Assembly (NCBI GenBank): GCA_964639965.1
Contig: CAZXGI010000004.1
Location: 3,888-67,887, forward strand
Source: an uncultured Rhodospirillaceae bacterium
Lineage (GTDB): Bacteria; Pseudomonadota; Alphaproteobacteria; Rhodospirillales; UBA2165
Reading direction: 5' to 3'
DNA length: 64,000 nt
Below are positions 2,600 through 42,852 of this stretch, piece by piece. The first letter of the stretch is position 1. Each line of letters starts with the position of its first letter. The notes below the pieces were generated by a model. It searched no databases, had not been told where the DNA came from, and saw only the letters and a list, made by a program, of their open reading frames with translations. Position numbers and translations under genes: made by a program.

Positions 2600-2988
2600 T
2601 TTATATTCCTAGACAACAAATTAAACAAAACCACAAATAGACTTTAGATAGTGATAATATTACACAGAATCCTATATGGCTCAAACGGGAAAGTAGCCCC
2701 ACCAATTAACAATATCTCACGACTTTTTGTTTTCATTAAACCAATATTCTTTCAGCCATTTTAATAAATTACCTCTTTAAGATAACTATAATAAAAAATC
2801 AATTCTCCATCACTTTTGTAGCTTCCAGAAATACATGCTTACAATGTTTCCATGATATAATAATTATGACAAGCGTAGGCAGGTTCTTATACAATTGACA
2901 GTAAACTGATGTCGCTAGCAGAAAATTGTACAGAATGAAATTGACACAAGGTTAATCCATAAAAACAAAGTGTGATTTGGAGGCTTAA

Positions 2989-3612: not shown

Positions 3613-3626
3613 GGCACATTAACTTA

Positions 3627-4205
3627 TCAATTATCAAATACGATCAAATATTTTTTCAATAACTGCATCTGTGCAACTAAAAATAATATTGTCAAACTTA
3701 GTATTCCAAATACTTTAAAGTTAACCCAGAAATCAGTGGTTTGAGTGCGCCAAACTATCTCATTCAGCAAAGCCATAGAAAAAAAGAAAATTGCAAACCG
3801 ACGAGTAAAGAGAACCCACCCCTGCTGTTTCATTTTTATCGAAGCTCCAAGTAACTTTTCAAGAAACATATTTTTTGTATACAAACCAATCAAAAGGATC
3901 AAACCAAAGATAAACTGAATTATTGTAGGTTTCATCTTGATGAAAGTTTCATCCTTTAACCAGAGGGTTAATCCCCCAAAAAAAATAATTATACACCCCG
4001 TCACGATTGGCATGATCGGAAGTCGCCTTTCAACCAAAAACGAAAGAACTAGCACGACGAGTGTCGTAATAATTATAGCTGCGGTAGCCTTGAATAAATC
4101 AGTTGCCCAATATGTAACAAAAAAAACGATAAGTGGCCCGTACTCGACTATCGCCTTTAATACTTTAGGGTCAATAGAGGCCTTTTTTTCTTTTGGTTCG
4201 TTCAC
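3627..4205 (-). CDS. yciB: intracellular septation protein A (YciB/IspZ family)
   Basis: 192-aa five-TM protein whose N-terminal ..LKAIVEYGPLIVFFVTY.. region and overall pattern are typical of YciB. Confidence 0.8.
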   Translation of the reverse strand: MNEPKEKKASIDPKVLKAIVEYGPLIVFFVTYWATDLFKATAAIIITTLVVLVLSFLVERRLPIMPIVTGCIIIFFGGLTLWLKDETFIKMKPTIIQFIFGLILLIGLYTKNMFLEKLLGASIKMKQQGWVLFTRRFAIFFFSMALLNEIVWRTQTTDFWVNFKVFGILSLTILFLVAQMQLLKKYLIVFDN

Positions 4206-4338
4206 AAAATCTTCCTTTGAAAAATAATCCCACCGATAATTAGAATAACGCCCAAAATAAAAAATTAAAGTGCGTATTTACTTTAAGGGGGATACCCCCG
4301 AATATACACCTGCTAAAATATGCAACCTGAGGTAGTTT

Positions 4339-5316
4339 ATGTTTGCTCCTTTTTTCTTAAATCGCGTTTGGGCCTTATGGTCTTGGCTGGGTGGGGCTTT
4401 TATTTTGTTTTCCACATGGTACCAGGTGCAACTAGATGTAAAAATTACCGAATGGTTCCGAACCTTTTATGACACACTACAAAAAGCATTAAGCAAGCCT
4501 AATTCGGTGACGTTTGACGAATTCTTAACATACCTTATCGAATTTGCCCAAATTGCCGGTCTATGGATAGTAATAATGATTGTTACAGGTTTTTTTGTTT
4601 CGCACTGGGTTTTCAGATGGCGAACCGCAATGACCAATCGATATCAATCTCTTTGGAATGACGTAAAACACATAGAAGGTGCAGCCCAACGAATTCAGGA
4701 AGACACACTAAAATTTGCCAGAATAATGGAAACCTTAGGTGTTGGTCTCCTTGACTCAGTGATGACCTTATTTGCATTTGTACCGTTATTATGGGGTTTA
4801 TCCAAACAAATTACCGAATTACCTTGGATAGGAGAAGTCAATCATGGCTTGGTTTGGGTCGCTATTTTGGCCGCCTTAGGTGGAACCCTATTATTGGCAA
4901 TGGTAGGTATAAAATTACCAGGTATAGAATTTGATATACAAAAGGAGGAGGCTGCTTACCGCAAAGAACTAGTATTAGGGGAGGATAACCAGGATAGAGC
5001 CAAACTAAATATGCTCGAAGATCTTTATTTAAAAGTGCAAGGAATACATTTCAGATCTTATTTTCATTATCTATATTTTAATGCCTGTAAGTGGAGTTAT
5101 TTTCAGGGAATGGTGATTGTTCCCTATATAGCCCTGGCCCCAACAATTGTTACAGGTGTAGTAACGCTAGGTTTTGTTCAACAAATTGTCCGGGTTTTTG
5201 GCAGAGTTGAAAGCTCACTTCAATATTTGGTGCGCTCCTGGTCAACAATAGTTGAACTGATCTCCGTATTTAAACGGCTTAGAGCATTTGAAAGTGCTAT
5301 AAAACCAAAACCTTAA
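4339..5316 (+). CDS. SbmA/BacA-like inner-membrane transporter (no ATPase domain)
   Basis: 325-aa polytopic protein with an IEGAAQRIQEDTLKF segment resembling the conserved SbmA/BacA motif. Confidence 0.65.
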   Translation: MFAPFFLNRVWALWSWLGGAFILFSTWYQVQLDVKITEWFRTFYDTLQKALSKPNSVTFDEFLTYLIEFAQIAGLWIVIMIVTGFFVSHWVFRWRTAMTNRYQSLWNDVKHIEGAAQRIQEDTLKFARIMETLGVGLLDSVMTLFAFVPLLWGLSKQITELPWIGEVNHGLVWVAILAALGGTLLLAMVGIKLPGIEFDIQKEEAAYRKELVLGEDNQDRAKLNMLEDLYLKVQGIHFRSYFHYLYFNACKWSYFQGMVIVPYIALAPTIVTGVVTLGFVQQIVRVFGRVESSLQYLVRSWSTIVELISVFKRLRAFESAIKPKP

Positions 5317-5554
5317 CCCCTAATCAGTAATTAACCAATAAATCTTTGGGATCTATATTAAGATAAATTAGTCATTGCCAAGGCTCACTTCTTATTCAAA
5401 AGGGACCAGGCAAACCAAAATATGCAACCACATACCAAAACAGCAAAAACGACAAGTAGTAATCCTAACATGCAATTAGATTACAGCACCATAAAAATGA
5501 ATTCAACCTCACCTCAAAAGGATTTAATTCTAATAGGCCAAACAAATAAACTTC

Positions 5555-6487
5555 CTAATCTGGGCCATACTTACCTGTTAACTGGGGCGCATGGGGTGGT
5601 TCAAGACCCTTATTTTTCCTCTCCAGGCGTGTAGTTCTCTCCCATGTCCGCTTGAGATCATCACGAATATTTACTTTCAGCCGACCCAAACCCTCACACT
5701 CCAACTCAACGGTGTCTCCGTCATGAAAGGGGTTCAATCCTCCGTGATTTGTCCCAGTAGCAATAATATCTCCAGGTTCTAAGGTATGAACATGACTAAT
5801 AAACTCGATACACCGTTTAATATTATGTGCCATGTCATTTGTATTAAAATCCTGCATAATTTTCCCATTAACCCATAATTTAATGGGCAACTCCTGTGGG
5901 TTGTCGATCTCATCTTTTGTAACAAGGTAGGGTCCAATGGGAGTGAAAGTCTCACGACCTTTCATTTGAAAAAAAACATTCGAAGCTGGTGGCATTCCAC
6001 GCGCAGATCCGTCGATAAAATTTACATATCCAAAGACGTAATCCATGGCGTCATCCTGGTTTACCTCGTAACATCGTTTACCAATTACAACCCCTAACTC
6101 TGCCTCTCCTTCAAAGACCGTCGCAGGAATATCTTGAAGAACCATTGTGTCGTTTGGTCCTATAACGCTATTGGACGCTTTGGTGAATGCATTAATGGGA
6201 GGAGGCTCTGTTAATGTTCCGTCTTCCATATAGTTGACAGCCATACAGTCGATATTTACGGGACGTGGCAAAGGTGGCCGTATTTGAACATTATTAATTG
6301 GCAAACCTTTCTCACTAATCATAGCCTCTTCTAGGAGACTACGATATTGTTCAAAGTTCTCAATTAACCCATTGATCAGATCGTGTGGGCCCACCATTGG
6401 TATGTCGTTAACTTTACCGCTAACATCTATAACATTTTCCCCACTTAAAACTCCAAGTTTGAAATCATCAAAAAATAAAATTCTCAA
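5555..6487 (-). CDS. fumarylacetoacetate hydrolase (FAH) family protein
   Basis: 310-aa ORF with TTG start and GGGAG Shine-Dalgarno. FAH-domain patterns present (..GEAELGVVIGK.., ..FTPIGPYLVTKDEI.., ..PGDIIATGT..). Confidence 0.85.
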   Translation of the reverse strand: MRILFFDDFKLGVLSGENVIDVSGKVNDIPMVGPHDLINGLIENFEQYRSLLEEAMISEKGLPINNVQIRPPLPRPVNIDCMAVNYMEDGTLTEPPPINAFTKASNSVIGPNDTMVLQDIPATVFEGEAELGVVIGKRCYEVNQDDAMDYVFGYVNFIDGSARGMPPASNVFFQMKGRETFTPIGPYLVTKDEIDNPQELPIKLWVNGKIMQDFNTNDMAHNIKRCIEFISHVHTLEPGDIIATGTNHGGLNPFHDGDTVELECEGLGRLKVNIRDDLKRTWERTTRLERKNKGLEPPHAPQLTGKYGPD

Positions 6488-12845: not shown

Positions 12846-14554
12846 AACAAAAAGTACCTTTGTGCCATGGCGAGTTCATCAGCAGGCTCACAAATCAATA
12901 GCTCCCCGTCAGCTCTCACCTCATAGGTTTCAGGATCAACTTCAATTTTTGGCTGATAATCATTTAACTTCATATCTTTTTTCTTAACGGATCGAGTCCC
13001 AAAAACTGGTATCAATTCTCTTGAGAGGCCCAATGTACTGCTGATATTAGAATGAGCTGCAGCCTCAGATGTAAAAGTTATGGAACTTTCAATTAACGAT
13101 CTGCCAAATGCTCCAAACATAGGACGGTAATGCACAGGTTGAGGTGTTGGAATAGAGGCATTTGGATCCCCCATAGCTGCTGCAGCAATCGTGCCTGCTT
13201 TAAGAATAATATCGGGTTTAACGCCAAAAAACATAGGTTTCCATAAAACAAGATCGGCTAATTTACCAACTTCGATAGAACCTACATGTTCAGAAATTCC
13301 ATGTGAGATAGCTGGATTTATCGTATATTTTGCAATATATCTCTTCACTCGAACATTATCGTTCTCACCAGTCTCTCCGACCAAATGGCCGCGTTGTTTC
13401 TTCATCTTATCAGCCGTTTGCCATGTGCGAATTATTACTTCACCAACTCGCCCCATCGCCTGACTGTCTGATGCTATCATGGAAAATGCCCCAAGATCGT
13501 GAAGAATATCTTCAGCCGCTATAGTCTCTCGACGAATTCGGCTTTCCGCAAAGGCAATATCTTCAGGGATCCGAGAGTCCAAATGATGACAAACCATCAA
13601 CATGTCAAGATGTTCATCTACTGTGTTAACGGTGAATGGTCGCGTTGGATTAGTTGACGACGGCAACACATTCGCTTCACCGCATACTTTAATTATGTCA
13701 GGCGCATGGCCTCCACCTGCCCCTTCAGTATGGAAGGCATGTATAGTGCGATGCCTAAATGCTTCTATGGTATTCTCAACAAAACCAGCCTCATTCAAAG
13801 TGTCCGTGTGAATCGCAACCTGAACATCCATTTCATCTGCGACCCCGAGGCATGTATCGATGGCTGATGGAGTCGTGCCCCAATCCTCATGGAGTTTGAG
13901 ACCACAAACTCCGGCTTCGACTTGAGCCTTTAATTCATCAGGTTGTGATGAGTTACCCTTACCAAAAAAACCAAGGTTCATGGGTAACCCTTCTGCAGCT
14001 TGAAGCATACGGCTTATATGCCAGGCTCCAGGTGTACACGTTGTCGCATTCGTACCTTCCGCTGGCCCTGTTCCCCCACCAAGCATGGTTGTAATTCCTG
14101 AGTACAAAGCATCATCAACCTGCTGTGGACTAATCCAATGAATGTGAGCATCAATACCACCAGCCGTTAAAATGCGTCCTTCACCAGCTATAGCTTCGGT
14201 GCCTGGGCCAATTATGATATCAATATTTGATTGGATATCCGGATTACCCGCCTTGCCAATAGCATGGATACGCCCTTCCTTCAGTCCGACATCAGCTTTA
14301 AGAATACCCGAATGATCAACAATTAGTGCATTTGTTATGACGGTATCAACGGCTCCATTTGCTCGACTTATTTGAGATTGCCCCATACCATCACGGATGA
14401 CTTTTCCACCGCCAAATTTAACCTCTTCACCATAAAACGTCTTATCATCCTCGACTTCGATAAAAAGATCAGTATCAGCAAGACGAATTTTATCCCCAGT
14501 GGTGGGCCCATACATCGCAGCATATTCTGAGCGTTCTATCTCATAACCCATCAA
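12842..14554 (-). CDS. ureC: urease alpha subunit UreC
   Basis: 570 aa with canonical urease alpha sequence ([30 protein letters not shown]). Confidence 0.97.
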
Positions 14555-14856
14555 ACCTTGCCCTGTATTTTTGCATTAAAGCCAAACACAACCTGATCAC
14601 CTTCATATAAAACCAACTCGACCTCACGCACCTGACCAGGCTCAAAGCGAACCGCCGTACCAGCTGGGATATTGAGGCGGTAACCTCTGGTATTTTCGCG
14701 ATCAAATTCCAGGGCGCCATTTGATTCATAAAAATGAAAATGAGACCCCACTTGTATAGGACGATCGCCAGTATTAGTGATTTCTAGCTTCTGAGTAACT
14801 CGCCCTTCATTAAGGATAATTACCCCATCTGTTGTAACAATTTCTCCTGGGATCAT
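14551..14856 (-). CDS. ureB: urease beta subunit UreB
   Basis: 101 aa starting MIPGEI..., typical of UreB. Confidence 0.95.
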
Positions 14857-14865
14857 TATATTACC

Positions 14866-15168
14866 TCACCTTATTGGTTCATGTACGGTGACGAGTTTGG
14901 TTCCATCAGGAAATGTTGCTTCGACTTGGATATCCCCAATCATTTCCGGAATGCCATCCATTACTTGATCGCGTTGCAAAACATTTGCACCATCCGCCAT
15001 CAAATCAGCAACACGACGTCCATCTCTCGCACCTTCAACAACGAAGTCACTAATCAATGCGATGGCCTCGGGATAATTCAACTTAACACCGCGAGATAGT
15101 CTTTTTCGTGCAACCTCAGCAGCCATGGCAATTAAAAGTTTATCCTTTTCTCTGGGAGAAAGATTCAT
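14866..15168 (-). CDS. ureA: urease gamma subunit UreA
   Basis: 100 aa starting [13 protein letters not shown]..., typical of UreA. Confidence 0.95.
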
Positions 15169-15248
15169 ATTTGACCCTCCATAGAAACCTAAAATAGATT
15201 AAAGAAATTTATCCTGTAATAAATTAATATTCCACAATTTATTGTAAT

Positions 15249-16124
15249 TTACATATTCCATAATCGTGGCATTCTCGCTGGCAAGCCAATTAACTTATTA
15301 CGGAAATTCAGCCAAAAATCTCCAAAAGCATTCCGCAACTCCAATGTATCATTTCCAAGCCATCTCATAACTAAAATCCCGTTTACATGAGTTACTCCAG
15401 ACTTGACAGCCTTTTGGGAATTTCCAATAACATCTCGGGCAATAGTAAGCGCCTCCTCGGCATCCGGACCTACATAAACTGCTGTTGCCATCGCTACAGC
15501 ACCGTCAAAACAAGCCGGATCGCTTATTACCGAGCCTATATTTTTTTCGAGGTGCAACACATCGGACCAAATTAAACGCCCTTTATGCTCAATTTCCCAG
15601 ACATCACGTATCAACCCGTTCTCAAAATTCTCACCAAAACCCAATCGCCCAAATACAATTATCTCGCCTGCAAATAGACGGCCACCATCAATAACGTTGA
15701 TATTTTTTTTTCGATTCAAACGTGATCCTTCAAATAAAATTGTTTCCTGAGGAAGAAACTCTAGCCAACCACCAGTCTCTGATAAAAGGTTTATATTTAT
15801 CTCGGTATTTTCTCCATTTGAACGATAAATTTTCTCTGCTGCCTGGGCCATCACAAGGGCTCTCGCGTTCTCACCTATATTAACTTCTATCGAAATGACA
15901 TCACCACCGACAAGTCCACCCGATGTTGTCACGGTAACCGCATTCATAATTTCATCTTTCCGGGTAATGGGGAAAAGAAATCTTAAGGGATCGGAATGGT
16001 ATAAATCAATTATACGAGCATCTCCACCGGGAGCACACTCAATACTAAGCTCCGCTTTACCTTCAACTTTAATCTTCCCTGACGTCTTATTTAAATTTAG
16101 AGAGGGTGAGATAGCAACAGACAT
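15249..16124 (-). CDS. ureD: urease accessory protein UreD
   Basis: UreD-like sequence at the head of the operon. The ORF is open to 16274 (341 aa), but the ATG at 16124 (MSVAISPS..) has an AGGA-containing Shine-Dalgarno region and gives a typical length of about 290 aa. Confidence 0.8.
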   Translation of the reverse strand: MSVAISPSLNLNKTSGKIKVEGKAELSIECAPGGDARIIDLYHSDPLRFLFPITRKDEIMNAVTVTTSGGLVGGDVISIEVNIGENARALVMAQAAEKIYRSNGENTEININLLSETGGWLEFLPQETILFEGSRLNRKKNINVIDGGRLFAGEIIVFGRLGFGENFENGLIRDVWEIEHKGRLIWSDVLHLEKNIGSVISDPACFDGAVAMATAVYVGPDAEEALTIARDVIGNSQKAVKSGVTHVNGILVMRWLGNDTLELRNAFGDFWLNFRNKLIGLPARMPRLWNM

Positions 16125-16272
16125 TTCTCTTATCCTAGAAACAGATCTTAACGCAAAGATAGCATCGTTCCAAAATAATACAGGGTAAACATCAGACCAT
16201 TTTTTTGCAAACTCGATTTTTAGTCGACCTTTCGGAAAGGAAATATTATTATAAAACGGGAAGGCAGTTGAC

Positions 16273-16719
16273 ATGACTATCTTAGCTGGTGCACTGGAAA
16301 TAGACTGGAAGTGCCGTCATACTTGGCGACGCTCGTCTGTTAATACGCTTTGGTGTCTGCTCGGATGCTCAATCGGTGATTTCGGTACGATAGCTTTTTT
16401 TCAATTGAACTCTATCGCATGGCCAACAATAGCGATTATGTTATTAGCCATTTTGATGGGTTTGTTAACATCAATTTTATTAGAAACAATCATTCTAATT
16501 CGTCAAATGTCGATTCACCTCGCATTAAAAACGGCTTTAGGTATGTCTCTCATCTCCATGATCTCTATGGAGGTGGCTATGAATGTATTAGACGTTATTG
16601 TTACCGGAGGGGCAATTCTTACATGGACGGTCATTCCATTTATGCTGATTGTGGGGTTCATCACGCCACTTCCCTACAATTATTGGCGATTGAAAGCATT
16701 AGGTAAAGCCTGTCATTAA
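16273..16719 (+). CDS. DUF4396-like small integral membrane protein
   Basis: 148 aa, 4 TM, with an LGCSIGDFG motif resembling DUF4396; GGGAAGG Shine-Dalgarno. Confidence 0.55.
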   Translation: MTILAGALEIDWKCRHTWRRSSVNTLWCLLGCSIGDFGTIAFFQLNSIAWPTIAIMLLAILMGLLTSILLETIILIRQMSIHLALKTALGMSLISMISMEVAMNVLDVIVTGGAILTWTVIPFMLIVGFITPLPYNYWRLKALGKACH

Positions 16720-27426: not shown

Positions 27427-28710
27427 CTACTCAGCTGCGGTCTTAGAATTTTCCGCATCTTTGCGGTCATACCACTTATCAGCTTCAGCATCCCATTTTG
27501 ACGTATCTACATACGAGTTCGTTCGCGGATGATTGACCATGTTAGGATCTATTTCCACGCCGACACCATCGAGAAAATTAATCAGGCCAATCCGATCAAT
27601 TGTCTCACCGACTCGTTCATGTTCTAAAGCGTTTTCCGCAAAAAAATCTATTACATTTCCAGCTATTTCCTCGAGCTTTTCATAATCTTCATCTGTTTCA
27701 AGTTTGAGAAAAGGCACTACAACGGTTCCCATTTGATCACCTATTTTAAGAGACCGCTTGCCCCCTATCAGTATTGTCACGCCCTTATCATCGCCGGGGG
27801 AAAGAGCTTTATTCATGACATTTAGACAATGCATACAGCGAACACAACTCTCGTTGTCTACGTCGAGCGTATCATCATCATTAAGACTTAAGGCATTTGT
27901 CGGACAGCGCGTTATTACGTTATCTATAGTATATTTTCGACCGGCTTCGGCCACGTATTTCTTCACTTCTTCCTGATCCACCTTCATTTCATCGCGCCAA
28001 GTGCCAATTACCGCAAAATCGGCACGATGGATTGCGTTGACACAGTCATTAGCGCAGCCCGAGAACTTAAACTTAAACTTGTATGGCAAAGCTGGTCGAT
28101 GCATTTCGTCCAAAAACGCATTAATGATTTGCCGATGTGCCTTCACTTCATCATAGCAAGATTGCTCGCAACGGGCATGGCCAACACAACTCATCGAAGT
28201 TCGAAGAGCAGGCCCCGCTCCTCCCATATCAAGACCAATTTCATTCAAGCCGTCAAAAGCCTTTTGGACGTTTTCCGTTGTCGCGCCCTGAAACATTATA
28301 TCACCACTTTGCCCATGTAAGGCAATCAGACCTGACCCATGCTCTTCCCAAACATCACACATTTTGCGCAAAAGATCCGTGCTATAATGCATGCCGGCGG
28401 GTGGTTGAACGCGCAATGTATGAAACTCGCTAGATTCTGGGTATTTTTCGGGAACCTGCGAAAAGCGAGGAATAACACCTCCTCCATAACCAAAAACACT
28501 TACAGTACCGCCTTTCCAATAGCCAAGCCTCGTTTCATAAGAGTGCTCAAGCTGGCCCATTAGATCATTCATCATGGGTGCATATTGCTTATCGTCATCA
28601 TTCGCTAGTCTCTTAAGACCATCAACAAAACTGGGCCACTTACCACCCTGCAGTTCGTCTAATAAGGGCGTTTCGTGTTTTTCACCGTTGGATCTTTTCT
28701 TTTTACTCAT
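27427..28710 (-). CDS. dsrA: dissimilatory sulfite reductase alpha subunit (oxidative-type cluster)
   Basis: SCVGHARCEQSC, SGCANDC, ferredoxin insert CPTNAL..CVRCMHC. The ORF is open to 28782, but ATG 28710 (MSKKKRS..) follows a GGAGG Shine-Dalgarno at 8-nt spacing. Confidence 0.95.
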   Translation of the reverse strand: MSKKKRSNGEKHETPLLDELQGGKWPSFVDGLKRLANDDDKQYAPMMNDLMGQLEHSYETRLGYWKGGTVSVFGYGGGVIPRFSQVPEKYPESSEFHTLRVQPPAGMHYSTDLLRKMCDVWEEHGSGLIALHGQSGDIMFQGATTENVQKAFDGLNEIGLDMGGAGPALRTSMSCVGHARCEQSCYDEVKAHRQIINAFLDEMHRPALPYKFKFKFSGCANDCVNAIHRADFAVIGTWRDEMKVDQEEVKKYVAEAGRKYTIDNVITRCPTNALSLNDDDTLDVDNESCVRCMHCLNVMNKALSPGDDKGVTILIGGKRSLKIGDQMGTVVVPFLKLETDEDYEKLEEIAGNVIDFFAENALEHERVGETIDRIGLINFLDGVGVEIDPNMVNHPRTNSYVDTSKWDAEADKWYDRKDAENSKTAAE

Positions 28711-28779
28711 AAAAAAAGCCTCCGCACTAGATTTTTCAAAAGCTAAGTCCATGCAAAACAATAATCCACAGTAGACTGC

Positions 28780-28821
28780 CATTGATTATATATTACACTA
28801 TGATGTATGATATAATCAATG
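28780..28821. promoter_or_regulatory. perfect 12-bp inverted repeat (CATTGATTATAT-N18-ATATAATCAATG) overlapping a promoter-like TTGATT-N18-TAATAT upstream of dsrA; candidate operator
   Basis: Read directly from the sequence: arms at 28780-28791 and 28810-28821, 70-111 nt upstream of the preferred dsrA start. Confidence 0.35.
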
Positions 28822-28971
28822 TTTTACTAAAATATAAAATAAGGCATAAAATTTCAATGAAAATCTACAATTTAGTCTCAATAAGAATAAAAATACATAT
28901 ATAACAATGATTTAAAGTAAGAAATCTAATATTTTTTTCCTGTTACAGAAAATAGGGCCTTTTAACAAAAT

Positions 28972-29862
28972 ATGGGTATACCAATAAACATCAGTGATAA
29001 TGACATTTATCTGCGATGGCGAGATGAAAAACTTGAAAAATACCCCCGTAGTATTGAGGATTTAACGGTTAAAATTACCACACCTGGCGAGCCGAACAAA
29101 CATAATATAGAAAAATTAAAGGCTCTGTGTCTTAAATCCAACATGGTAATCTATAAAGCCCCTGAAGAAATTATTGAGAATAAAAACATTGCCTTAAACA
29201 TGGGTATTTCCCTTGGTCTACAGCATATTGAACGATCCTTAACAACTGAGAACGATGGCGTCAGCGAGTTATCAGTAATAGGGGCCGGTGTAAAAAGCCA
29301 TTATATCCCGTACACAGATAAACGGCTCGGTTGGCATACTGATGGTTGTTACAACGATACAAATAACCAAATAAATGGCTTTATATTGCACTGCGTTCGC
29401 GCTGCAAAAGATGGTGGTGAAAACCATCTACTTGACCCCGATATAGCTTATATTCTCTTGAGAGACGAAAACCCAGAATTTATTGAAGGTTTGATGCTAG
29501 ATGACGCACTAACTATCCCTCAAAATAAAGAAAATGGGATTATACTTCGAAAAAAACAAACTGGACCAGTTCTTACAATCCAGAAAAATAATCTTAATAC
29601 AGGTATTAGAGCAATTCACTTTCGTTATACAAGTCGCCAAACTTTTGTGCTGTGGAACAAGGATACTCGCACTCAAGGCGCATTGGACTTTCTAAAAAAA
29701 ACTCTCCAAGCTAGATGCCCATATATATTTCGCATAAAATTGCAACCAGGATCTGGTATCATTGGAAATAATATCCTTCATAATCGAACAAAGTTTAAAA
29801 ACGGCGAATCAAAAGCTGGTCAGCGTTTATTTTATAGAATCTACTATAAAGATAGAATATAG
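28972..29862 (+). CDS. TauD/TfdA-superfamily Fe(II)/2-oxoglutarate dioxygenase, gamma-butyrobetaine-hydroxylase-like
   Basis: 296 aa; HxD facial-triad context LGWHTDGCY..INGFILHCVRAAKDGGENHLLD and distal His/Arg NNILHNRTKF. Confidence 0.7.
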   Translation: MGIPINISDNDIYLRWRDEKLEKYPRSIEDLTVKITTPGEPNKHNIEKLKALCLKSNMVIYKAPEEIIENKNIALNMGISLGLQHIERSLTTENDGVSELSVIGAGVKSHYIPYTDKRLGWHTDGCYNDTNNQINGFILHCVRAAKDGGENHLLDPDIAYILLRDENPEFIEGLMLDDALTIPQNKENGIILRKKQTGPVLTIQKNNLNTGIRAIHFRYTSRQTFVLWNKDTRTQGALDFLKKTLQARCPYIFRIKLQPGSGIIGNNILHNRTKFKNGESKAGQRLFYRIYYKDRI

Positions 29863-29887
29863 AGTTATTAGATCGTAAGGAAAAAAA

Positions 29888-30163
29888 ATGGAAAAAAATA
29901 CACCTGTATCAATAGATAAAGCTACGGTTATTCCTTTAAGTCAAATTATAATTCAAAACCATGATGTAGTTACATTTGCCAAGTTGATGGAAGTGATAAA
30001 TCAAATGGGTGAAGGAGGAATGGTCTTGATGGAATTTGATTTAAAACCAGATTTTCCCGATACGCCAAGAGATTGGCAAAATCAATTAGAACTGGCATTT
30101 ATGACCAAATCTAGCCCATTTAGCCGACCCCCTGAAATAATAGAAAGACCGGAAGATAAATGA
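29888..30163 (+). CDS. hypothetical protein (91 aa), no family recognised
   Basis: AAGGA Shine-Dalgarno; lies 25 nt after the dioxygenase gene; no Cys, no TM. Confidence 0.5.
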   Translation: MEKNTPVSIDKATVIPLSQIIIQNHDVVTFAKLMEVINQMGEGGMVLMEFDLKPDFPDTPRDWQNQLELAFMTKSSPFSRPPEIIERPEDK

Positions 30164-30375
30164 CCCTCGAAACATTAAAGGAACTAAGTAGGATTGAAGC
30201 GCCTTATGGCCGCGAGATTATAATACAAAGTGTTACTCACGAAAGCGGCATGGAAATGTTGAGAGTGAGAATTAAAGAAGGATCGCGTTTTACAATACTG
30301 GATATTGATCAAGAGACAGCCCAAAAATGGGGGAAAGTTTTTTTGAGTTGGATTGAAACAGCAAGAGACCATTGA
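30160..30375 (+). CDS. hypothetical protein (71 aa), no family recognised
   Basis: ATGA start/stop overlap with the preceding ORF (translational coupling); predicted beta-beta-beta-alpha pattern. Confidence 0.5.
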   Translation: MTLETLKELSRIEAPYGREIIIQSVTHESGMEMLRVRIKEGSRFTILDIDQETAQKWGKVFLSWIETARDH

Positions 30376-30384
30376 TTATTTTTT

Positions 30385-30606
30385 TTAACCTTTTCTAATA
30401 TGGAATCTAAATAAACTAACTTCCTCTTCAAGTTTTATTAGTTCATGGCCCTGCGAACTGCAAAAAAGCTTAAAGTCCTCAACTGAATTGGGATCCGTCA
30501 CCTCAACGAGCAACGTCTCACCTTCTTCAATGCGCATTATGGCTTTTTTTAGTTTTAATATTGGAATAGGACAAACCAAACCCTTAGTATCGAGTCTTTC
30601 TACCAT
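30385..30606 (-). CDS. tusA: TusA/SirA-family sulfurtransferase
   Basis: 73 aa; DTKGLVCPIPILK (CPxP active site). Confidence 0.85.
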   Translation of the reverse strand: MVERLDTKGLVCPIPILKLKKAIMRIEEGETLLVEVTDPNSVEDFKLFCSSQGHELIKLEEEVSLFRFHIRKG

Positions 30607-30874: not shown

Positions 30875-31651
30875 ATGATTAGTGAGCTAAAGATTTTGCC
30901 ATTGGAATTAAACGATGTTTCGCTTGAGATCAATGGCATGCGTTACATTAAAGACTTTAACTTAAAACTTGAGGCCAACACTACCACAATTGTTCTAGGA
31001 CCAAATGGAGCGGGGAAAAGTCTTTTCCTTCGTTTGTGTCATGGCCTAATAAAACCGACGGTTGGGTCAGTACGCTGGCTTGGGCCAGAAGGTGAAAACC
31101 CAAAAAGTCATCAAAGCATGGTATTTCAGAAACCTATAATGTTTAAACAATCAGTGAAAAGCAATCTACATTTTGGGCTTAAATCCCGAAAAATAAAAAA
31201 AACTAAAAGAGATCCTATTGTCGAACAAATTTTAGAAATAACGGGGTTAAGTCGACTAGCCTCTACTCCCGCGCGCGCATTATCCATAGGTGAGCAACAG
31301 CGTTTAGCGATTGGGCGAGCATGGACGCTCAGACCCGAAGTTCTTTTTCTTGATGAACCTACCGCAAATTTAGATCCAGCCGCAACGCATGTTGTCGAAG
31401 AAATTATCGGCAAAATCAAAAAAGCAGGAACCACAATTATCATGTCTACACATGACCTTGGCCAAGCAAAAAGATTGGCCGATAATATCCTGTTCTTAAA
31501 TCGAGGCCGAATATTGGAAAATAGTCCCGCAGCACAATTTCTTGATAAACCTAAGAATGACCTCGCACAATCTTTTTTGAGAGGGGAGCTTCTTTGGTGG
31601 CATCGAAAGAAACTAAAGCCCCCTGCAAATAAAAAGAATTACATAAGTTAA
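30875..31651 (+). CDS. ABC transporter ATP-binding protein (PstB/TupC-like), orphan
   Basis: Walker A GPNGAGKS, Q-loop MVFQKP, atypical signature LSIGEQQRL, Walker B LFLDEP, H-loop STHD. No permease or binding-protein gene is adjacent. Confidence 0.85.
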   Translation: MISELKILPLELNDVSLEINGMRYIKDFNLKLEANTTTIVLGPNGAGKSLFLRLCHGLIKPTVGSVRWLGPEGENPKSHQSMVFQKPIMFKQSVKSNLHFGLKSRKIKKTKRDPIVEQILEITGLSRLASTPARALSIGEQQRLAIGRAWTLRPEVLFLDEPTANLDPAATHVVEEIIGKIKKAGTTIIMSTHDLGQAKRLADNILFLNRGRILENSPAAQFLDKPKNDLAQSFLRGELLWWHRKKLKPPANKKNYIS

Positions 31652-32292
31652 ATCAAAAACAAATATAAAGGTACAAAGGATAAAATTATAAAGAATATGA
31701 TTTTTTTAAATGGAAACATGTTCATGAAGTTAAATGGAAAAGAAGTTTTGATATGCGACTGGCTCCATCCCCGGGCGTATTATTTATGCACGTAAAAAAT
31801 CGTCAGTTACCTGAAAATGACCATTTGTCGATTCATCCAGTAAATTGGATCCAGATTTGAGCCAGAAATCCGTTATTTTTCGTTCATCCTTTTAATACGA
31901 TGAACTATTAAATCGTCAATTTCCAATATTTTTACCCGATACTAGTATATTGTATATGTAATCTGTATAATAAATTACTATAAACTGACCTAAAGAGTAT
32001 CAAATTCATTTGAAAAATACACGTCTATCCAGCCTAACCAACGGTATTATTAATTAACCAATTGTCATATTTCAAAAACCAAAGCCTGAGAATTTCGCTT
32101 GGCACTCTGTAACTATTTAAACAAGAATTTCCAAGTATATTGTATTCTTCCAATATAAAAAAGATTCAAATTCAAGATAACGTTGAAAAATTATTATTAG
32201 TCTTAATTTAATCAATACGTTTTAATAAAATTAAAACCACCAAAAGAAACTCTCTCATTGCAACTTATCCCAACTTTTGCGACATATGGTGT

Positions 32293-35149: not shown

Positions 35150-36472
35150 ATGAAAAAACAATTATTTGCAATACTAATTCTAGCCCTCTCAATACCGATT
35201 ATTAGTCACCCAACTTGTCTCCAAGCAGCTGAAAAAGTCAAAGTTAAATCAAATATTGAAACATATCGCTTACTAAATCTTTTTGGAGACGTTTTTGAAC
35301 GAGTTCGCACAAGCTACGTAACCGAAATTTCAGATGAAGATTTAATCGAGGCTGCAATTACAGGCATGCTAACCTCGCTGGATCCCCACTCAAGTTACCT
35401 TAACGCGAAAAACTTCAAGGATATGAAGGTACAAACCCGAGGTAAATTTGGGGGTCTGGGTATAGAAGTAACAATGGAAGGCGGATTAATCAAAGTAGTC
35501 TCACCGATCGATGATACACCCGCTTATCGTGCGGGTCTAAAGTCAGGCGATTTAATAACTCATTTAGATGGCAAAAGAGTGCAGGGATTAACCCTTTCAG
35601 AGGCTGTCGACAAAATGCGTGGAAAAGTTGGCGAAGATATTAAACTCACCATCCTGCGTATCGGCAAAAGGCCCTTCAATGTTACAGTAACACGTGGCAT
35701 CATTCCTATTCGAACGGTCAGATCCCGAATTGAAGCCAAAGACATCGGCTATATCCGCATCTCATCTTTTAGTCAACCTACCGAAAAAGGTCTCAACAAG
35801 GCCATGGCAAGCATCAAAAAGAAACTTGGCGAAAAGTTTAGTGGTCTAGTGCTGGACTTAAGAAATAATCCTGGTGGTCTTCTTGATCAAGCCATCGCGG
35901 TCTCTGATGCTTTTCTGGAGAGAGGTGAAATCGTCTCAACTCGCGCCCGGAAAGAAGAAATGCATAAACGATTTCATGCAAAGCCAGGTGATCTAGCTGG
36001 TGGCAAACCAATTGTTGTTTTGATCAACGGTGGATCTGCAAGCGCTTCCGAAATTGTAGCCGGAGCCTTGCAAGATCATAAACGTGCAATCGTTCTCGGA
36101 ACAAAATCTTTTGGGAAGGGGTCTGTACAAACAATCATCCCACTTCAAGAACATGGAGCGATGCGTTTAACCACGTCCCGGTATTACACGCCATCAGGCC
36201 GAAGCATCCAAGAAATTGGTGTAACCCCGGACATTATCGTTGAGCCAGCTAAATTTGAAGCTGCCAAAACTCGAAAGCAACCTCGAGAAGGCGATTTGCG
36301 TGGCGCCCTAAAGAATGATAATAAAAAGAATAATTTGGAAGAAAACCCCAACGATAAATTAGGAAATTCGAAGAAAAATTCTGTTAGAATTAATATAACA
36401 GACTTCCAATTACAGCGGGCATTAGACCTTCTTCGTGGCGTCTCAATGTTTTCTCAACGGATTGAAGGATAG
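35150..36472 (+). CDS. ctpA: carboxy-terminal processing protease (S41)
   Basis: 440 aa; signal peptide, PDZ region, GGSASASEI and SFGKGSVQ motifs. Confidence 0.92.
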   Translation: MKKQLFAILILALSIPIISHPTCLQAAEKVKVKSNIETYRLLNLFGDVFERVRTSYVTEISDEDLIEAAITGMLTSLDPHSSYLNAKNFKDMKVQTRGKFGGLGIEVTMEGGLIKVVSPIDDTPAYRAGLKSGDLITHLDGKRVQGLTLSEAVDKMRGKVGEDIKLTILRIGKRPFNVTVTRGIIPIRTVRSRIEAKDIGYIRISSFSQPTEKGLNKAMASIKKKLGEKFSGLVLDLRNNPGGLLDQAIAVSDAFLERGEIVSTRARKEEMHKRFHAKPGDLAGGKPIVVLINGGSASASEIVAGALQDHKRAIVLGTKSFGKGSVQTIIPLQEHGAMRLTTSRYYTPSGRSIQEIGVTPDIIVEPAKFEAAKTRKQPREGDLRGALKNDNKKNNLEENPNDKLGNSKKNSVRINITDFQLQRALDLLRGVSMFSQRIEG

Positions 36473-39041: not shown

Positions 39042-40910
39042 ATGGAAGGATCAAACGCTGTCGCCATGGAGGGAGCCATTCGCGAACAGGTAGAAGATGT
39101 AGTCGTTCGATTTGCGGGTGATTCGGGTGACGGCGTTCAGATAACAGGTGGACAGTTTACATTAACGACAGCATTGGCCGGCAATGATTTATCAACATTT
39201 CCCGATTTTCCCGCTGAGATTAGAGCTCCGCAAGGTACCACTTTCGGCGTTTCAGCATTCCAAATTCACTTTGGATCTCGTGAAATCCGGACGGCAGGTG
39301 ATGCGCCAGATGTATTGGTAGCTCTCAATCCGGCCGCTTTGAAAGTTAACCTTGCCGATCTTACTAAAGGTGGATTAATCATTGCCGATACTGGTTCCTT
39401 TACAGAAAGAAACCTTAAAAAAGCCGGATATAGTAGCAACCCCATTGAAGATGGTTCTGTCGAGGGCTTCCGACTTATCACCTCTGATATAACAAAAAAT
39501 ACCCTCGAAGCAGTCAAAGAATTCGGCCTTTCCCAAAAGGAGGCCGTCCGCTGCAAAAACATGTACGCCCTTGGGCTAGTTTACTGGCTTTATGACCGTG
39601 ATCGATCGCCAACGACAACCTGGCTGAATGAAAAATTTGGCAAACGCCCGGAGATTGCTGAAGCTAATATTGCAGCAGTAAATGCGGGACATGCATTTGG
39701 CGAAACTATCGAAATATCAGGCGAGACCTCTTCTTATAAGGTAATGCCTGCGGCAATCGAACCTGGCCTTTATCGAACAATTACTGGAATTGAAGCTATT
39801 TCATTTGGTTTAATTGCAGGCGCACAAAAAGCTAATCTTCGAATGACCTTCGCCGGTTATCCAATTACGCCAGCTTCAGCTATTTTACACACTTTATCAA
39901 AACTTAAACAATTTGATATTATTACTTTTCAGGCCGAAGATGAAATAGCGGCAGTTGGCGCTGCTTTAGGCGGATCGTATGCTGGTACTCTAGGTGTTAC
40001 AGCGAGTTCTGGGCCTGGCATCGCACTCAAAACAGAAACTATCGGATTAGCTATATCGGTTGAGTTACCTCTTATAATCATTAACGTTCAACGTGCGGGG
40101 CCCTCAACTGGAATGCCGACCAAAACTGAACAATCTGATTTGCATCAAGCCGTATTGGGTCGCAACGCGGATAGTTCTTTGGTTGTAATATCAGCAAGCA
40201 CGCCTGCTGATAACTTTGACGTTGCAATTGAAGCTACGAGGCTCGCAACGAAGTATATGACACCGGTTATGTTGTTGACTGATGGTTATCTTGCTAATGC
40301 ATCGGAACCATGGAGGATACCTGATGCCGATAAAATTCCAGAATTCCCGGTAGAATTCATAAATAATTCTGACAAATTTAGTCCTACTAAACGCAATCCT
40401 GATACATTAGCTAGAAATTGGCCTATCCCTGGGACACCAAAACTTGAACATCGAATAGGTGGTATTGAAAAATCTTATGTGACAGGGAATATTTCATACG
40501 ACGCATCCAATCACCAAAAAATGACAGATGTCCGCAAAAATAAAATTGATGGTATTGCTAAAGACATCCCTGAACAAATAATTTCACGCGGTGACGAGAC
40601 TGGAGAGATTGCCGTGGTTGGTTGGGGTTCCACATTTGGTCCGATAACCCGCGCTGTTCAAAAAGTTCGAGCAGATGGGCATAGCATATCACACATTCAT
40701 ATTAGGTATATCTGGCCGTTACCCAGAAACTTAGGATCACTCTTAAAAAATTTCAAAAAGATAATAGTAGCCGAAATGAATACCGGACAACTGATAACCA
40801 TCCTACGTAGTCAATATTTAATTAGCGCCCAAGGCCTTAATAAAATATCTGGCCAACCTTTTAAAGTCTCCGAAATTGAAGAGGCTATCCGAAATAGTTT
40901 GGAGAATTAA
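39042..40910 (+). CDS. korA: 2-oxoglutarate/2-oxoacid:ferredoxin oxidoreductase alpha subunit
   Basis: 622 aa; RFAGDSGDGVQ N-terminal pattern and the fused gamma/alpha architecture typical of KorA. Confidence 0.9.
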   Translation: MEGSNAVAMEGAIREQVEDVVVRFAGDSGDGVQITGGQFTLTTALAGNDLSTFPDFPAEIRAPQGTTFGVSAFQIHFGSREIRTAGDAPDVLVALNPAALKVNLADLTKGGLIIADTGSFTERNLKKAGYSSNPIEDGSVEGFRLITSDITKNTLEAVKEFGLSQKEAVRCKNMYALGLVYWLYDRDRSPTTTWLNEKFGKRPEIAEANIAAVNAGHAFGETIEISGETSSYKVMPAAIEPGLYRTITGIEAISFGLIAGAQKANLRMTFAGYPITPASAILHTLSKLKQFDIITFQAEDEIAAVGAALGGSYAGTLGVTASSGPGIALKTETIGLAISVELPLIIINVQRAGPSTGMPTKTEQSDLHQAVLGRNADSSLVVISASTPADNFDVAIEATRLATKYMTPVMLLTDGYLANASEPWRIPDADKIPEFPVEFINNSDKFSPTKRNPDTLARNWPIPGTPKLEHRIGGIEKSYVTGNISYDASNHQKMTDVRKNKIDGIAKDIPEQIISRGDETGEIAVVGWGSTFGPITRAVQKVRADGHSISHIHIRYIWPLPRNLGSLLKNFKKIIVAEMNTGQLITILRSQYLISAQGLNKISGQPFKVSEIEEAIRNSLEN

Positions 40911-40914
40911 GCCT

Positions 40915-41940
40915 ATGAATAAAGTAACACCCCCGGCAGAATTAACTATTAAAGATTATGCATCAGATCAAGAAGTCCGCTGGTGCCCTGGTTGCGGAGA
41001 TTACTCAATTGTTCGAGCCATGCAAAAAACCTTAGCCGATCTTCAATCCCCTCCTGAAAAAACTGTTTTTATTTCTGGAATTGGCTGTGCAGCCCGGTTC
41101 CCTTACTATATGGCTACATATGGCTTCCATACTATTCACGGTCGCGCTGCCGCAATTGCAACCGGCACTAAGTTGGCTAATCCTGAACTAGATATTTGGG
41201 TTATCTCGGGTGATGGAGATTCACTCTCAATAGGAGGGAATCACTTGATGCACGTACTTCGCCGTAATGTCAATTTACAATATATTTTGTTTAATAATGA
41301 AATTTATGGCCTCACAAAAGGTCAATATTCACCAACCTCAAAAATTGGAACACGTTCACCCTCAACTCCAATGGGTTCAGTAGATAGCCCCCTCTCCGCC
41401 ACTCTGTTTGCACTTGGCTGTGGTGCTAGGTTTGTCGCTCGTGGGATCGACGCTCAACCCAAACACTTGCCAGAAGTTTTCAAGCGTGCACATGAACACA
41501 AAGGTGCATCATTCGTTGAAGTTTTCCAAAACTGCATTGTGTATAACGATGGAGTTTACGATCATTTTACGGCAAAAGACGTAGTTGCAGATAGACAAAT
41601 TCAAATTGTCCATGGTGAACGACTTTTATTTGGCAAAGACGGCAAGAAAGGTCTGCGGATGAAACCTGAGAAAATTGAATTGGAGGTTGTAACAATTGGA
41701 GAGGGAGGTATTACGGAAAAAGATATTTTGGTGCATGATGAGACCAACAAATTTCTAGCAACACTGTTAGCCCAAATGACCGGTCCCAGCTTCCCTGTGG
41801 CTATCGGGGTGCTTTATTGCAATCCTTCCGATACCTATGAAGATGCTGTCCATGCCCAGATTAGTTCTAAAAAGAAATCTGATCGGTCAACCAAGATAAA
41901 TGACCTTTTGCGAAATGGGCCAACATGGACAGTTAATTGA
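40915..41940 (+). CDS. korB: 2-oxoglutarate/2-oxoacid:ferredoxin oxidoreductase beta subunit
   Basis: ATG lies 4 nt after the korA stop; WCPGCGDY Cys motif and TPP-binding ISGDGDSLSIGGNH. Confidence 0.9.
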   Translation: MNKVTPPAELTIKDYASDQEVRWCPGCGDYSIVRAMQKTLADLQSPPEKTVFISGIGCAARFPYYMATYGFHTIHGRAAAIATGTKLANPELDIWVISGDGDSLSIGGNHLMHVLRRNVNLQYILFNNEIYGLTKGQYSPTSKIGTRSPSTPMGSVDSPLSATLFALGCGARFVARGIDAQPKHLPEVFKRAHEHKGASFVEVFQNCIVYNDGVYDHFTAKDVVADRQIQIVHGERLLFGKDGKKGLRMKPEKIELEVVTIGEGGITEKDILVHDETNKFLATLLAQMTGPSFPVAIGVLYCNPSDTYEDAVHAQISSKKKSDRSTKINDLLRNGPTWTVN

Positions 41941-42027
41941 CCGTTTGCAGGCTATTCTTTAATGAATAATTTGAGTCAATTTATTTTCCAAATTTAAAGA
42001 TATTTTCAATTTTAGGTCTTAAAGGAC

Positions 42028-42852
42028 ATGGAATTATTAAAGCATGTTTCAATAGTTAAATACTTACTGTTGAGTTCGATAATTAGTACATCGATTGCTT
42101 TATCAAAAGAGCCTGTCGGTTCTTTCATTCCCGGGACAAGTTTCAAAGATTGCCCAAATTGCCCAGAAATGTCAGTAATTCCAAGTGGAACGTTTATGAT
42201 GGGATCAACAAAAGGGAAAAAACGAGAATTGCCAATTACTAAAATTACCATAGCAAACCCTCTCGCCGTGAGTCGCTACGAAATAACCTTTGATGATTGG
42301 GATATCTGTTACGATGCTGAAGGTTGTTCAAAGAGACCTTCCGATAGGGGATGGGGGAGGGGCAAGAGACCAGTTATCAATGTCCTTCTAGAAGATATTC
42401 ATGAATACACTTCATGGTTAACAAAAAAAACAGGTTTTACCTACCGCCTACCTTCAGAATCTGAATGGGAATATGCCGCTAGAGCTGGCTCTCAAACTGA
42501 ATTTAGTTGGGGAGACCAAATGCAAATTGGAGCAGCTAATTGTCGTGGTTGTGGGACAGAATGGAGCGGTATAAAATCAGCTCCAGTTGGTCAATTTAAA
42601 GCTAACGCTTGGGGCCTTTATGATGTGCATGGCAACGTTCTTGAGTATGTAAGAGATTGTTGGTCTAAAAGTCATGACAACTTACCAACTGATGGATCAC
42701 CGAAAATTACTAAACACTGTTTAAGTAAAGTAGTTAAAGGTGGAGCTTGGTATTATCTGCCAAAAGTTTCCCGTTCGGCCTCCAGAGCACGCAATGACAA
42801 GCGAGTTATTAGTTATTTTATAGGCTTTCGAGTTTTACGTGAAATTGATTAA
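42028..42852 (+). CDS. formylglycine-generating enzyme (SUMF1/FGE) family protein, secreted
   Basis: 274 aa; signal peptide; YRLPSESEWEYAARAG, WGLYDVHGNVLEYV, KGGAWY. Confidence 0.85.
   Translation: MELLKHVSIVKYLLLSSIISTSIALSKEPVGSFIPGTSFKDCPNCPEMSVIPSGTFMMGSTKGKKRELPITKITIANPLAVSRYEITFDDWDICYDAEGCSKRPSDRGWGRGKRPVINVLLEDIHEYTSWLTKKTGFTYRLPSESEWEYAARAGSQTEFSWGDQMQIGAANCRGCGTEWSGIKSAPVGQFKANAWGLYDVHGNVLEYVRDCWSKSHDNLPTDGSPKITKHCLSKVVKGGAWYYLPKVSRSASRARNDKRVISYFIGFRVLREID

Follow-up and report, generated by a model that had tools for sequence, protein, structure and literature searches.

What is the role of a putative dioxygenase gene and two small downstream open reading frames (ORFs) that are located between dsrA and a convergent tusA gene in an uncultured Rhodospirillaceae bacterium? 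This question is raised by a stretch of 64,000 nucleotides (nt) from contig CAZXGI010000004.1 of assembly GCA_964639965.1 (positions 3,888 to 67,887 of the forward strand), which was analyzed at its full length and is referred to as the window. The locus represents the dsrQ operon of a reverse (oxidative) dsr cluster; its host is a marine alphaproteobacterium of Rhodospirillaceae type that is uncultured and low in guanine plus cytosine (GC). In this operon, dsrQ, a gene for a protein of 91 amino acids (aa) and a gene for a 71-aa protein of the DUF6967 family form one co-inherited, translationally coupled unit that is divergent from dsrA. The best explanation for the locus as a whole is a dsrQ operon with an O2-dependent role that is exerted via small protein partners, and this explanation is considered slightly more likely than not, its mechanistic part being put forward tentatively. 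The reverse Dsr pathway ranks among the major routes by which bacteria oxidize sulfur, also in marine oxygen-minimum zones, and dsrQ is among the few recurrent genes of dsr clusters that are still without a function.

Identity of the dioxygenase gene

The dioxygenase gene of the window is a dsrQ ortholog and not a new kind of element. According to Löffler et al. 2020 (PMC7596348), the name dsrQ was introduced by Lenk et al. 2012 (ISME J 6:2178) for a tauD-annotated gene transcribed opposite dsrA, its reported carriers are mainly chemotrophic sulfur oxidisers that are (facultatively) aerobic, and the release of sulfite from sulfonates is a standing speculation on its function. Later papers either repeated this speculation or presented DsrQ as a protein of 'unknown function'. 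In a literature search, in which Lenk et al. 2012 was covered through the summary in PMC7596348, the two small downstream genes were not mentioned and DUF6967 gave no match, and an exact database look-up of the DsrQ protein of the window returned no record. The Myxococcales SURF_8 contig of PMC7596348 was retrieved via the 71-aa protein (locus L022; compared loci carry L numbers), and it has dsrBA in one direction and dsrQ-DUF6967 in the other.

A first-pass annotation, made from the sequence alone, had described the three genes as an uncharacterised module. This holds for the 91-aa protein, which is without a family, and for the function of dsrQ, which is still speculative, but not for the rest, since dsrQ had already been named, its linkage with dsrA had been described, and the 71-aa protein belongs to a catalogued Pfam DUF. 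New here are the delimitation of a conserved unit of three genes, the recognition of the 91-aa proteins as an orphan family, a lead on the fold of DUF6967, and a wider repertoire of dsrQ operons; dsrQ itself has been named since 2012.

Conservation of the three-gene unit

The arrangement of the window, with dsrBA transcribed in one direction and dsrQ, an ORF of 62-95 aa, and a DUF6967 gene in the other, is found in alphaproteobacterial metagenome-assembled genomes (MAGs) and metagenome contigs at DsrQ identities of 60, 56, 56, 48, and 46%, and the three-gene order is repeated in six further alphaproteobacterial lineages. Leftward dsrBA and rightward dsrQ with small ORFs recur at DsrQ identities from ~69% to ~33% in Rhodospirillales, Hyphomicrobiales, Gammaproteobacteria including Beggiatoa, and one Myxococcales MAG, which supports the earlier suggestion of a dsr-linked accessory function. 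In every locus in which both small ORFs were called, they overlap or abut at their stop and start codons. A single DUF6967 sequence, used as query where an alignment would reach further, retrieved 12 genome loci, all of which are in a dsrQ/dsrA context. The DUF6967 gene is located directly downstream of dsrQ or of the 91-aa gene in 11 of them; in L017, it lies beside dsrA and no dsrQ ORF was detected.

A metagenome scan with a DsrQ alignment yielded 80 loci at ~40% identity, which were annotated by hidden Markov models built from our own alignments. Among the 47 loci with enough upstream sequence, dsrA is divergent upstream of dsrQ in 34, which contradicts the possibility, considered at the outset, that homologs occur mostly away from dsr; L063 is one further dsrA-linked locus that was missed owing to an ORF called too long. 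Of the 69 loci that could be evaluated for it, 33 have a gene of the 91-aa family after DsrQ. The presence of any small partner largely coincides with adjacency to dsrA in the metagenomic DsrQ loci (both, 24; neither, 12; dsrA only, 6; partner only, 1), and in a neighbour-joining tree of DsrQ the operon architectures are clade-coherent.

The tusA gene of the window is a lineage-specific neighbour from the sulfur relay and not a fixed part of the unit. Since a convergent tusA is found only in the window and in the group of L001, the conserved unit consists of dsrQ, the 91-aa gene, and the DUF6967 gene. A 7-bp gap to tusA is conserved in L001-L006, tusA is absent from that position in L007, L109, and L110, and an EamA gene, soxXYZAB, or an FCSD-like gene is found there elsewhere. 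The tusA linkage that had attracted attention in the first-pass annotation is thus valid for the window and for L001-type relatives, but not for the other alphaproteobacterial loci.

The 91-aa and 71-aa ORFs are true genes and not chance ORFs. Both were called by gene finders and recur in conserved form in numerous independent assemblies, the score of the 71-aa ORF exceeds the Pfam gathering cutoff of DUF6967, and the ratio of nonsynonymous to synonymous substitution rates (dN/dS) in comparison with L013 is 0.047 for the 91-aa gene and 0.112 for DsrQ. The notion that the small ORFs might be unconserved or non-coding is contradicted by these values. In comparison with L001, in which synonymous sites are saturated, dN is 0.091 for the 91-aa gene, 0.05-0.07 for DsrA, DsrB, and DsrC, and 0.30-0.38 for DsrQ, DUF6967, and TusA. 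It had also been proposed that the module was inserted next to dsrA and might be unrelated to it. The GC content of the module (0.33-0.38), which is below that of dsrAB (0.44-0.47), would be in line with an insertion or an artefact; however, the GC content of the non-dsr genes on its flanks is about as low, neither mobile-element genes nor flanking repeats were seen, and synteny is conserved over a wide divergence, with the unit being co-inherited with dsrAB. An unrelated insertion, or small ORFs that are not genes, is highly improbable.

Properties of DsrQ

DsrQ contains the motifs RLGWHTDGCYND and GNNILHNRTKF and matches the Pfam family TauD (PF02668) at residues 82-291 with an E-value of 5.6e-18 and 66 bits (cutoff, 27). 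A set of 20 diverse DsrQ sequences shares, without exception, the triad H122-x-D124...H270, R285, and R289, as well as a DsrQ-specific N-terminal motif, Y13-x2-W16-x3-K20-x4-P25. With the roles of the Fe triad and the 2-oxoglutarate-binding Arg being assigned from motif position and not from structure, DsrQ is a catalytically intact Fe(II)/2-oxoglutarate dioxygenase by its predicted active-site residues. As it has every residue expected of an active enzyme of this kind, its activity should require O2 and 2-oxoglutarate.

Judged by sequence comparison, DsrQ falls on the GBBH/TmpA side within the TauD/TfdA superfamily and is not a taurine dioxygenase proper. Only sub-threshold matches were obtained with NCBIfam models, namely to TMLD (44.4 bits; cutoff, 268.3), TmpA (33.6; cutoff, 400), and GBBH (31.1; cutoff, 414.75); the TauD model is absent among these matches, and equivalog-level similarity to TauD is not reached. 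A search of the PDB with a DsrQ profile returned TmpA (5.4e-9), GBBH (1e-5), and also DfmD; chains of TauD, AtsK, or TfdA were not among the matches at E<=1. The matched chains are 383-403 aa long, and the aligned part begins at around residue 186. The extra N-terminal domain of GBBH/TMLD-type enzymes is missing in DsrQ, which consists of 296 aa with the TauD domain only.

These affinities could indicate that the substrate of DsrQ is a small metabolite of the quaternary ammonium or sulfonium type and that DsrQ is merely co-regulated with dsr, without a direct role in sulfur oxidation. TmpA, GBBH, TMLD, and DfmD are in fact the closest families, but the scores are far under the curated cutoffs (44 compared with 268 bits) and the N-terminal domain of GBBH and TMLD is lacking. 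In addition, the divergent pairing with dsrA is kept across classes, which would be difficult to understand if there were no functional connection. Such a role of DsrQ is regarded as improbable.

A second alternative is that DsrQ is a dioxygenase for taurine or a related sulfonate of intracellular or ambient origin. In this case, the carbon atom next to the sulfonate group would be hydroxylated, the sulfite set free would join that formed by rDsrAB, and the small proteins would have an accessory role or none at all. The TauD/TfdA fold and the intact Fe/2-oxoglutarate site are compatible with this function, and the invariant R289 is found at the position of the Arg residue that presumably serves for anion binding in TauD-type enzymes (R-x3-R). 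Genes for the handling of sulfite are located nearby in relatives (aprBA in L001, TauE in L010), and small partners are missing at some of the DsrQ loci that are linked to dsrA. The TmpA/GBBH-like affinity would also be compatible with a quaternary-ammonium sulfonate, e.g., N-trimethyltaurine, and the idea of a sulfonate dioxygenase is stated in PMC7596348. Nevertheless, similarity to TauD stays below equivalog level, the closest relatives with a solved structure have trimethylammonium compounds, not sulfonates, as substrates, and neither a sulfonate transporter nor an aldehyde-processing enzyme was seen in the neighbourhoods with gene calls or Pfam annotation. A sulfonate dioxygenase would also leave unexplained that the small partners are almost restricted to dsrA-linked DsrQ and that DsrC-like, TusA-like, and Cas6-like proteins recur in the operon (see below). 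The evidence leans somewhat against a plain taurine-type enzyme, and a sulfonate dioxygenase is a competing explanation to be taken seriously, although a rather unlikely one.

The two small proteins

No family in Pfam and NCBIfam was matched by the 91-aa protein. The earlier statement that neither small ORF has a recognisable family is therefore correct for this protein, but it had to be revised for the 71-aa protein, which is a member of DUF6967. In an exhaustive HMMER search, the 91-aa family comprised 72 clusters among 1.84 billion representatives; close homologs number 21. The protein is acidic and has no Cys. The family shares a core of ~60 aa with the motif D-[LV]-[KR]-P-x-[FY]-x-D-T-P-x-x-W..LE.AF, in which the pattern D..P.....P..W....E..F is invariant. 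An AlphaFold2 (AF2) model with a pLDDT of 76 overall and 84-90 in the core has the topology β-α-α-β-loop-α; it had no significant fold match in the PDB with Foldseek, and a search of the PDB with the family profile gave nothing significant either. In every readable context, family members adjoin a TauD/DsrQ gene and/or a DUF6967 gene, the exception being L106. This is the contig of one of four distant members that were looked up, and with 628 bp it is too short to show a context; the other three have DsrQ and/or DUF6967 as neighbours, or DsrQ together with Cas6-like and DsrC-like genes.

The 71-aa protein matches Pfam PF22295 with an E-value of 1.8e-28 and 98.6 bits (gathering cutoff, 27) over profile positions 2-63 of 65. 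Its AF2 model (pLDDT 92) consists of four antiparallel strands and a C-terminal helix (ββββα) and includes a conserved basic hairpin, R35-x-R37-I-K39-E-G-S-R43-F-T, with the family form R-x-R-I-[KR]-E-G-S-R-F-T. The best fold matches in the PDB are PUR repeats and the PC4-like proteins SP_0782/YdbC (TM score 0.5-0.69, Foldseek probability up to 1.0, E 0.18-1.3), so that the predicted fold weakly resembles PUR/PC4-like nucleic-acid binders. A search of the PDB with the DUF6967 profile gave one marginal match (E 0.0015) to a 26-residue stretch of acyl carrier protein, which was regarded as chance. The idea that the 91-aa and DUF6967 families are homologous alternatives was rejected, as the hhalign probability is 1.8%.

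Related dsrQ operons and paralogs

Two further types of dsrQ operons were found. In the gamma/beta-type operon, dsrQ is followed by a gene of the 91-aa family, genes for proteins of ~236 aa and ~230 aa, and a DsrC-like gene. The third type has the order DUF6967, ~210 aa, DsrC-like or TusA-like, ~200 aa, and dsrQ. The protein of 210-230 aa matches the Pfam family 'Cas6 Crispr' (PF09559) over its full length with an E-value of 4e-57 and is above the NCBIfam cutoff for type I-MYXAN Cas6/Cmx6. Genes for this protein are present in 44 loci, e.g., L029 (6890-7585), L010 (9875-10564), L070 (1493-2122), and L108 (2281-2973). As a separate observation, the Cas6/Cmx6-like RAMP-family gene is part of gamma/beta-type dsrQ operons located beside dsrA, with no CRISPR context seen; a search for literature on Cas6 together with dsrC and dsrAB found nothing relevant.

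The same operons encode a second protein of the DsrC/TusE family that ends with ...KGGY instead of ...PTGCV, the catalytic Cys arm being gone (L029, 7641-7979; L070, 2162-2491; L033, 4687-5055). A DsrC-like protein without CysA, encoded between tusA/dsrE2A and dsrQ, has been described in the Methylovirgula HY1 paper and is regarded in that paper as probably regulatory, of the 'RspA' type; the second DsrC/TusE-family protein is similar to putative regulators of this type. TusA-like proteins with the Cys motif are encoded inside three third-type/gamma-type dsrQ operons. None of the gamma-type accessory genes (P236, Cas6/Cmx6-like, second DsrC-like) is located within the 64-kb window.

On the DsrQ tree, a clade close to the third type is made up of DsrQ-like genes that have no dsr gene within 5 kb. 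In L045 (2059-6410), L096 (2069-6413), L049, and L055 (both around 2949-5903), a radical-SAM gene and two genes for U32 peptidases precede the DsrQ-like gene, which is the last in the row, and an SCP2 gene is convergent, an arrangement that looks like ubiU/ubiV/ubiT; other dsr-free DsrQ-like genes are located beside hemerythrin. UbiU, UbiV, and UbiT belong to the O2-independent pathway of ubiquinone formation. These contexts are a hint at an oxygen-related role of the wider DsrQ family.

Proposed function of the dsrQ unit

In the explanation favoured here, DsrQ would catalyze an O2-dependent hydroxylation together with, or on, dedicated small proteins, and this hydroxylation would adapt or regulate sulfur oxidation by the Dsr system where the organisms encounter oxygen. 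In this scheme, DsrQ would have the 91-aa protein as its obligatory partner or its substrate, and DUF6967, with a putative PUR/PC4-like fold and a conserved basic face, would serve as an effector through binding to nucleic acid or to a different polyanion. The more specific claim, that DsrQ acts via protein partners as an accessory or regulatory component of the Dsr system in oxygen-exposed sulfur oxidisers and not in a free-standing sulfonate catabolism, is put forward tentatively.

Several findings favour such a partner-mediated role. The linkage with the partners is tight and exclusive, and the recurrent operon genes all encode proteins of macromolecule-binding types, namely DsrC-like proteins without the Cys arm, TusA-like proteins, Cas6/Cmx6, and DUF6967. 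Furthermore, the annotated neighbourhoods are without transport or catabolic genes, the match to true TauD is poor, and the contexts of the paralogs are oxygen-related. Action through protein partners is also suggested by the strong purifying selection on the 91-aa gene (dN 0.091 compared with 0.303 for DsrQ in the same genome pair) and by the predicted fold of DUF6967, which resembles PUR/PC4-like binders of single-stranded DNA or RNA. The link to O2 is based on the occurrence of dsrQ mainly in (facultatively) aerobic sulfur oxidisers, as reported in PMC7596348.

Other observations weigh against a partner-mediated role. Adjacency and coupling of dsrQ to the genes for the small proteins show co-expression and not contact. 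Six dsrA-linked DsrQ loci are without both small partners, and on the Beggiatoa contig dsrQ is directly followed by a methylase gene; therefore, the enzyme can exist without the small proteins. R289 is presumably the kind of residue that binds the anionic group of the small substrate in TauD, AtsK, and TfdA, and as it is invariant in DsrQ, a sulfonate or carboxylate substrate would fit. DUF6967 is slightly acidic overall, and its resemblance to PUR/PC4 proteins is statistically weak and concerns a common small topology. Across 19 diverse loci, conservation of the 91-aa family is 0.52 compared with 0.50 for DsrQ. The view that the 91-aa protein is uniformly as conserved as the core Dsr proteins was dropped on this basis, and the very strong constraint on the 91-aa protein is therefore lineage-specific.

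A narrower variant would be that DsrQ and its partners constitute an O2- and 2-oxoglutarate-sensing hydroxylase switch for the reverse Dsr pathway. In the presence of O2, DsrQ would hydroxylate or engage the 91-aa protein, and the changed 91-aa protein would alter the binding of the PUR-like DUF6967 to the dsrA-dsrQ control region or to dsr mRNA; in other lineages, Cas6/Cmx6-like and RspA-type DsrC-like proteins would take over the role of DUF6967. A switch of this kind is considered unlikely.

With dedicated small partners, i.e. an orphan family with a core of ~60 aa and DUF6967, and with Cas6/Cmx6-like, DsrC-like, and TusA-like proteins in other lineages, the vague label 'taurine dioxygenase-like' is turned into testable hypotheses: that the proteins form a complex, that a protein is hydroxylated, that nucleic acid is bound, and that the function depends on oxygen. 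Caution is also advisable when dsrQ is counted as tauD, and hence as an indicator of organosulfonate use, in metagenomic inventories of the sulfur cycle.

Organization of the locus and its control region

Features of the dsrQ locus in the window
Feature	Position	Strand	Remarks
dsrA (rDsr alpha subunit)	27427-28710	-	Pfam NIR_SIR + NIR_SIR_ferr; first gene of dsrABEFHCMKLJOPN
dsrA-dsrQ divergent control region, AT-rich	28711-28971	.	intergenic; ~260 bp
dsrQ, TauD/TfdA-superfamily Fe(II)/2-oxoglutarate dioxygenase (predicted), 296 aa	28972-29862	+	Pfam TauD PF02668
s91, 91-aa DsrQ-associated small protein	29888-30163	+	orphan family; AAGGA upstream
71-aa DUF6967 protein	30160-30375	+	Pfam PF22295
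tusA sulfur carrier	30385-30606	-	Pfam TusA; CPIP active-site Cys

The coordinates and motifs given in the first-pass annotation were all verified. The 91-aa ORF starts 25 nt after the stop codon of dsrQ, the start codon of the 71-aa ORF overlaps the TGA stop codon of the 91-aa ORF in the sequence ATGA, and the stop codon of the 71-aa ORF is 9 bp away from the convergent tusA gene. No terminator-like hairpin was found between the 71-aa ORF and tusA, so that the convergent transcripts should overlap or end inside each other's genes, as had been proposed. TusA matches its Pfam family with an E-value of 4.9e-23 and 81 bits (cutoff, 28.6) and has the motif GLVCPIPILK; with 61.3 bits, it is under the NCBIfam equivalog cutoff for the E. 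coli-type TusA (78). A scan of the dsrQ region against Rfam gave no family match at E<=1 and no structured RNA.

DsrA of the window is 92% identical to DsrA of L001 (420 aa). The longest dsrA ORF (27427-28782) has 451 aa and is ~24 codons longer than the DsrA ORFs of relatives (417-427 aa). As the DsrA proteins of relatives begin at a Met matching 28710, the ATG at this position is probably the true start, which would leave the intergenic region given in the table and would place the start downstream of conserved promoter-like blocks. These blocks, ATTACAC (28792-28798) and TAATCAAT (28813-28820), are kept in comparison with three relatives, while the rest has diverged. On the minus strand, the two blocks correspond to TTGATT-18 nt-TAATAT, a plausible promoter of dsrA. 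An inverted repeat of 18 nt with 89% complementarity (CATTGATTATATATTACA at 28780-28797 and TGTATGATATAATCAATG at 28804-28821) spans the conserved blocks and puts one TTGATT hexamer on each strand, and a promoter-like site TTGATT-18-TATGAT is located on the plus strand at 28782-28811. The right half of the inverted repeat and the ATTACAC block are conserved in relatives, but the left arm is not. The inverted repeat could represent overlapping divergent promoters or an operator.

Other features of the window

Downstream of dsrA, the cluster continues with dsrBEFHCMKLJOPN, after which urease genes follow. These genes (ureD and the genes for the gamma and beta subunits) are located within 14110-16274 directly after dsrN on the same strand, and dsrR and dsrS are not present after dsrN. 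A match to Rfam '5_ureB_sRNA' at 14110-14399 (+) is antisense to the urease genes.

On the other side of the dsrQ locus, a lone gene for an ABC-transporter ATPase (30875-31651) without an adjacent permease gene is separated from a phosphoglycerate mutase gene by an AT-rich region of ~640 bp (31652-32292). This region has a GC content of about 0.31-0.33, no ORF >=40 aa, and no Rfam match at gathering score. Further downstream, a match to Rickettsia sRNA47 in Rfam (35858-36149, minus strand, 70.7 bits) is antisense inside a gene for an S41 peptidase (ctpA-like); the match is probably due to a coding sequence that is conserved in alphaproteobacteria and not to a small RNA. At 39042-42852, ~9 kb from the dsr cluster, genes for a two-subunit 2-oxoacid:ferredoxin oxidoreductase (POR/TPP domains) are followed by a gene of the FGE-sulfatase family (formylglycine-generating-enzyme-like).

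Comparison with known systems

The closest counterpart of the dioxygenase gene is dsrQ of Lenk et al. 2012 as summarized in PMC7596348. It is likewise of the TauD/TfdA family, is located directly upstream of and divergent from dsrA, and is associated with an oxidative dsrABEFHCMKLJOPN cluster; the gene called tauD/dsrQ on the SURF_8 contig is homologous to DsrQ of the window (E about 1e-67). E. coli TauD shares with DsrQ the superfamily, the Pfam domain, the HxD...H iron triad, and an R-x3-R motif near the C-terminus. In contrast to dsrQ, which is paired with dsrA, tauD is part of the sulfate-starvation operon tauABCD. The TmpA/GBBH/TMLD clade has the core YxxxxxxxHTD...LHC...GG in common with DsrQ and provides its best relatives among solved structures and curated families, but DsrQ scores far under the cutoffs of these families and is without their extra N-terminal domain.

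With respect to the sulfur relay, the window is similar to rhd-tusA-dsrE2 clusters in that a genuine TusA, complete with the active-site Cys, is encoded next to the dsrQ unit. It differs in that no rhodanese or dsrE2 gene is located beside tusA, which is convergent and not co-transcribed. RspA-type DsrC-like proteins and TusA-like proteins are encoded inside the dsrQ operon in other lineages, but not in the window.

The PUR repeats of Pur-alpha and Borrelia Bpur and the PC4-like proteins SP_0782/YdbC share the ββββα arrangement with the model of DUF6967 over nearly its entire length (root-mean-square deviation, 2.5-5 Å), and a conserved basic and aromatic strand face is found in DUF6967 as in these binders. 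There is, however, no sequence similarity between them, and the Foldseek E-values are not significant. Finally, an O2-sensing hydroxylase switch composed of DsrQ and its partners would follow a logic similar to that of oxygen sensing by prolyl hydroxylases, which would here serve to tune bacterial sulfur oxidation.

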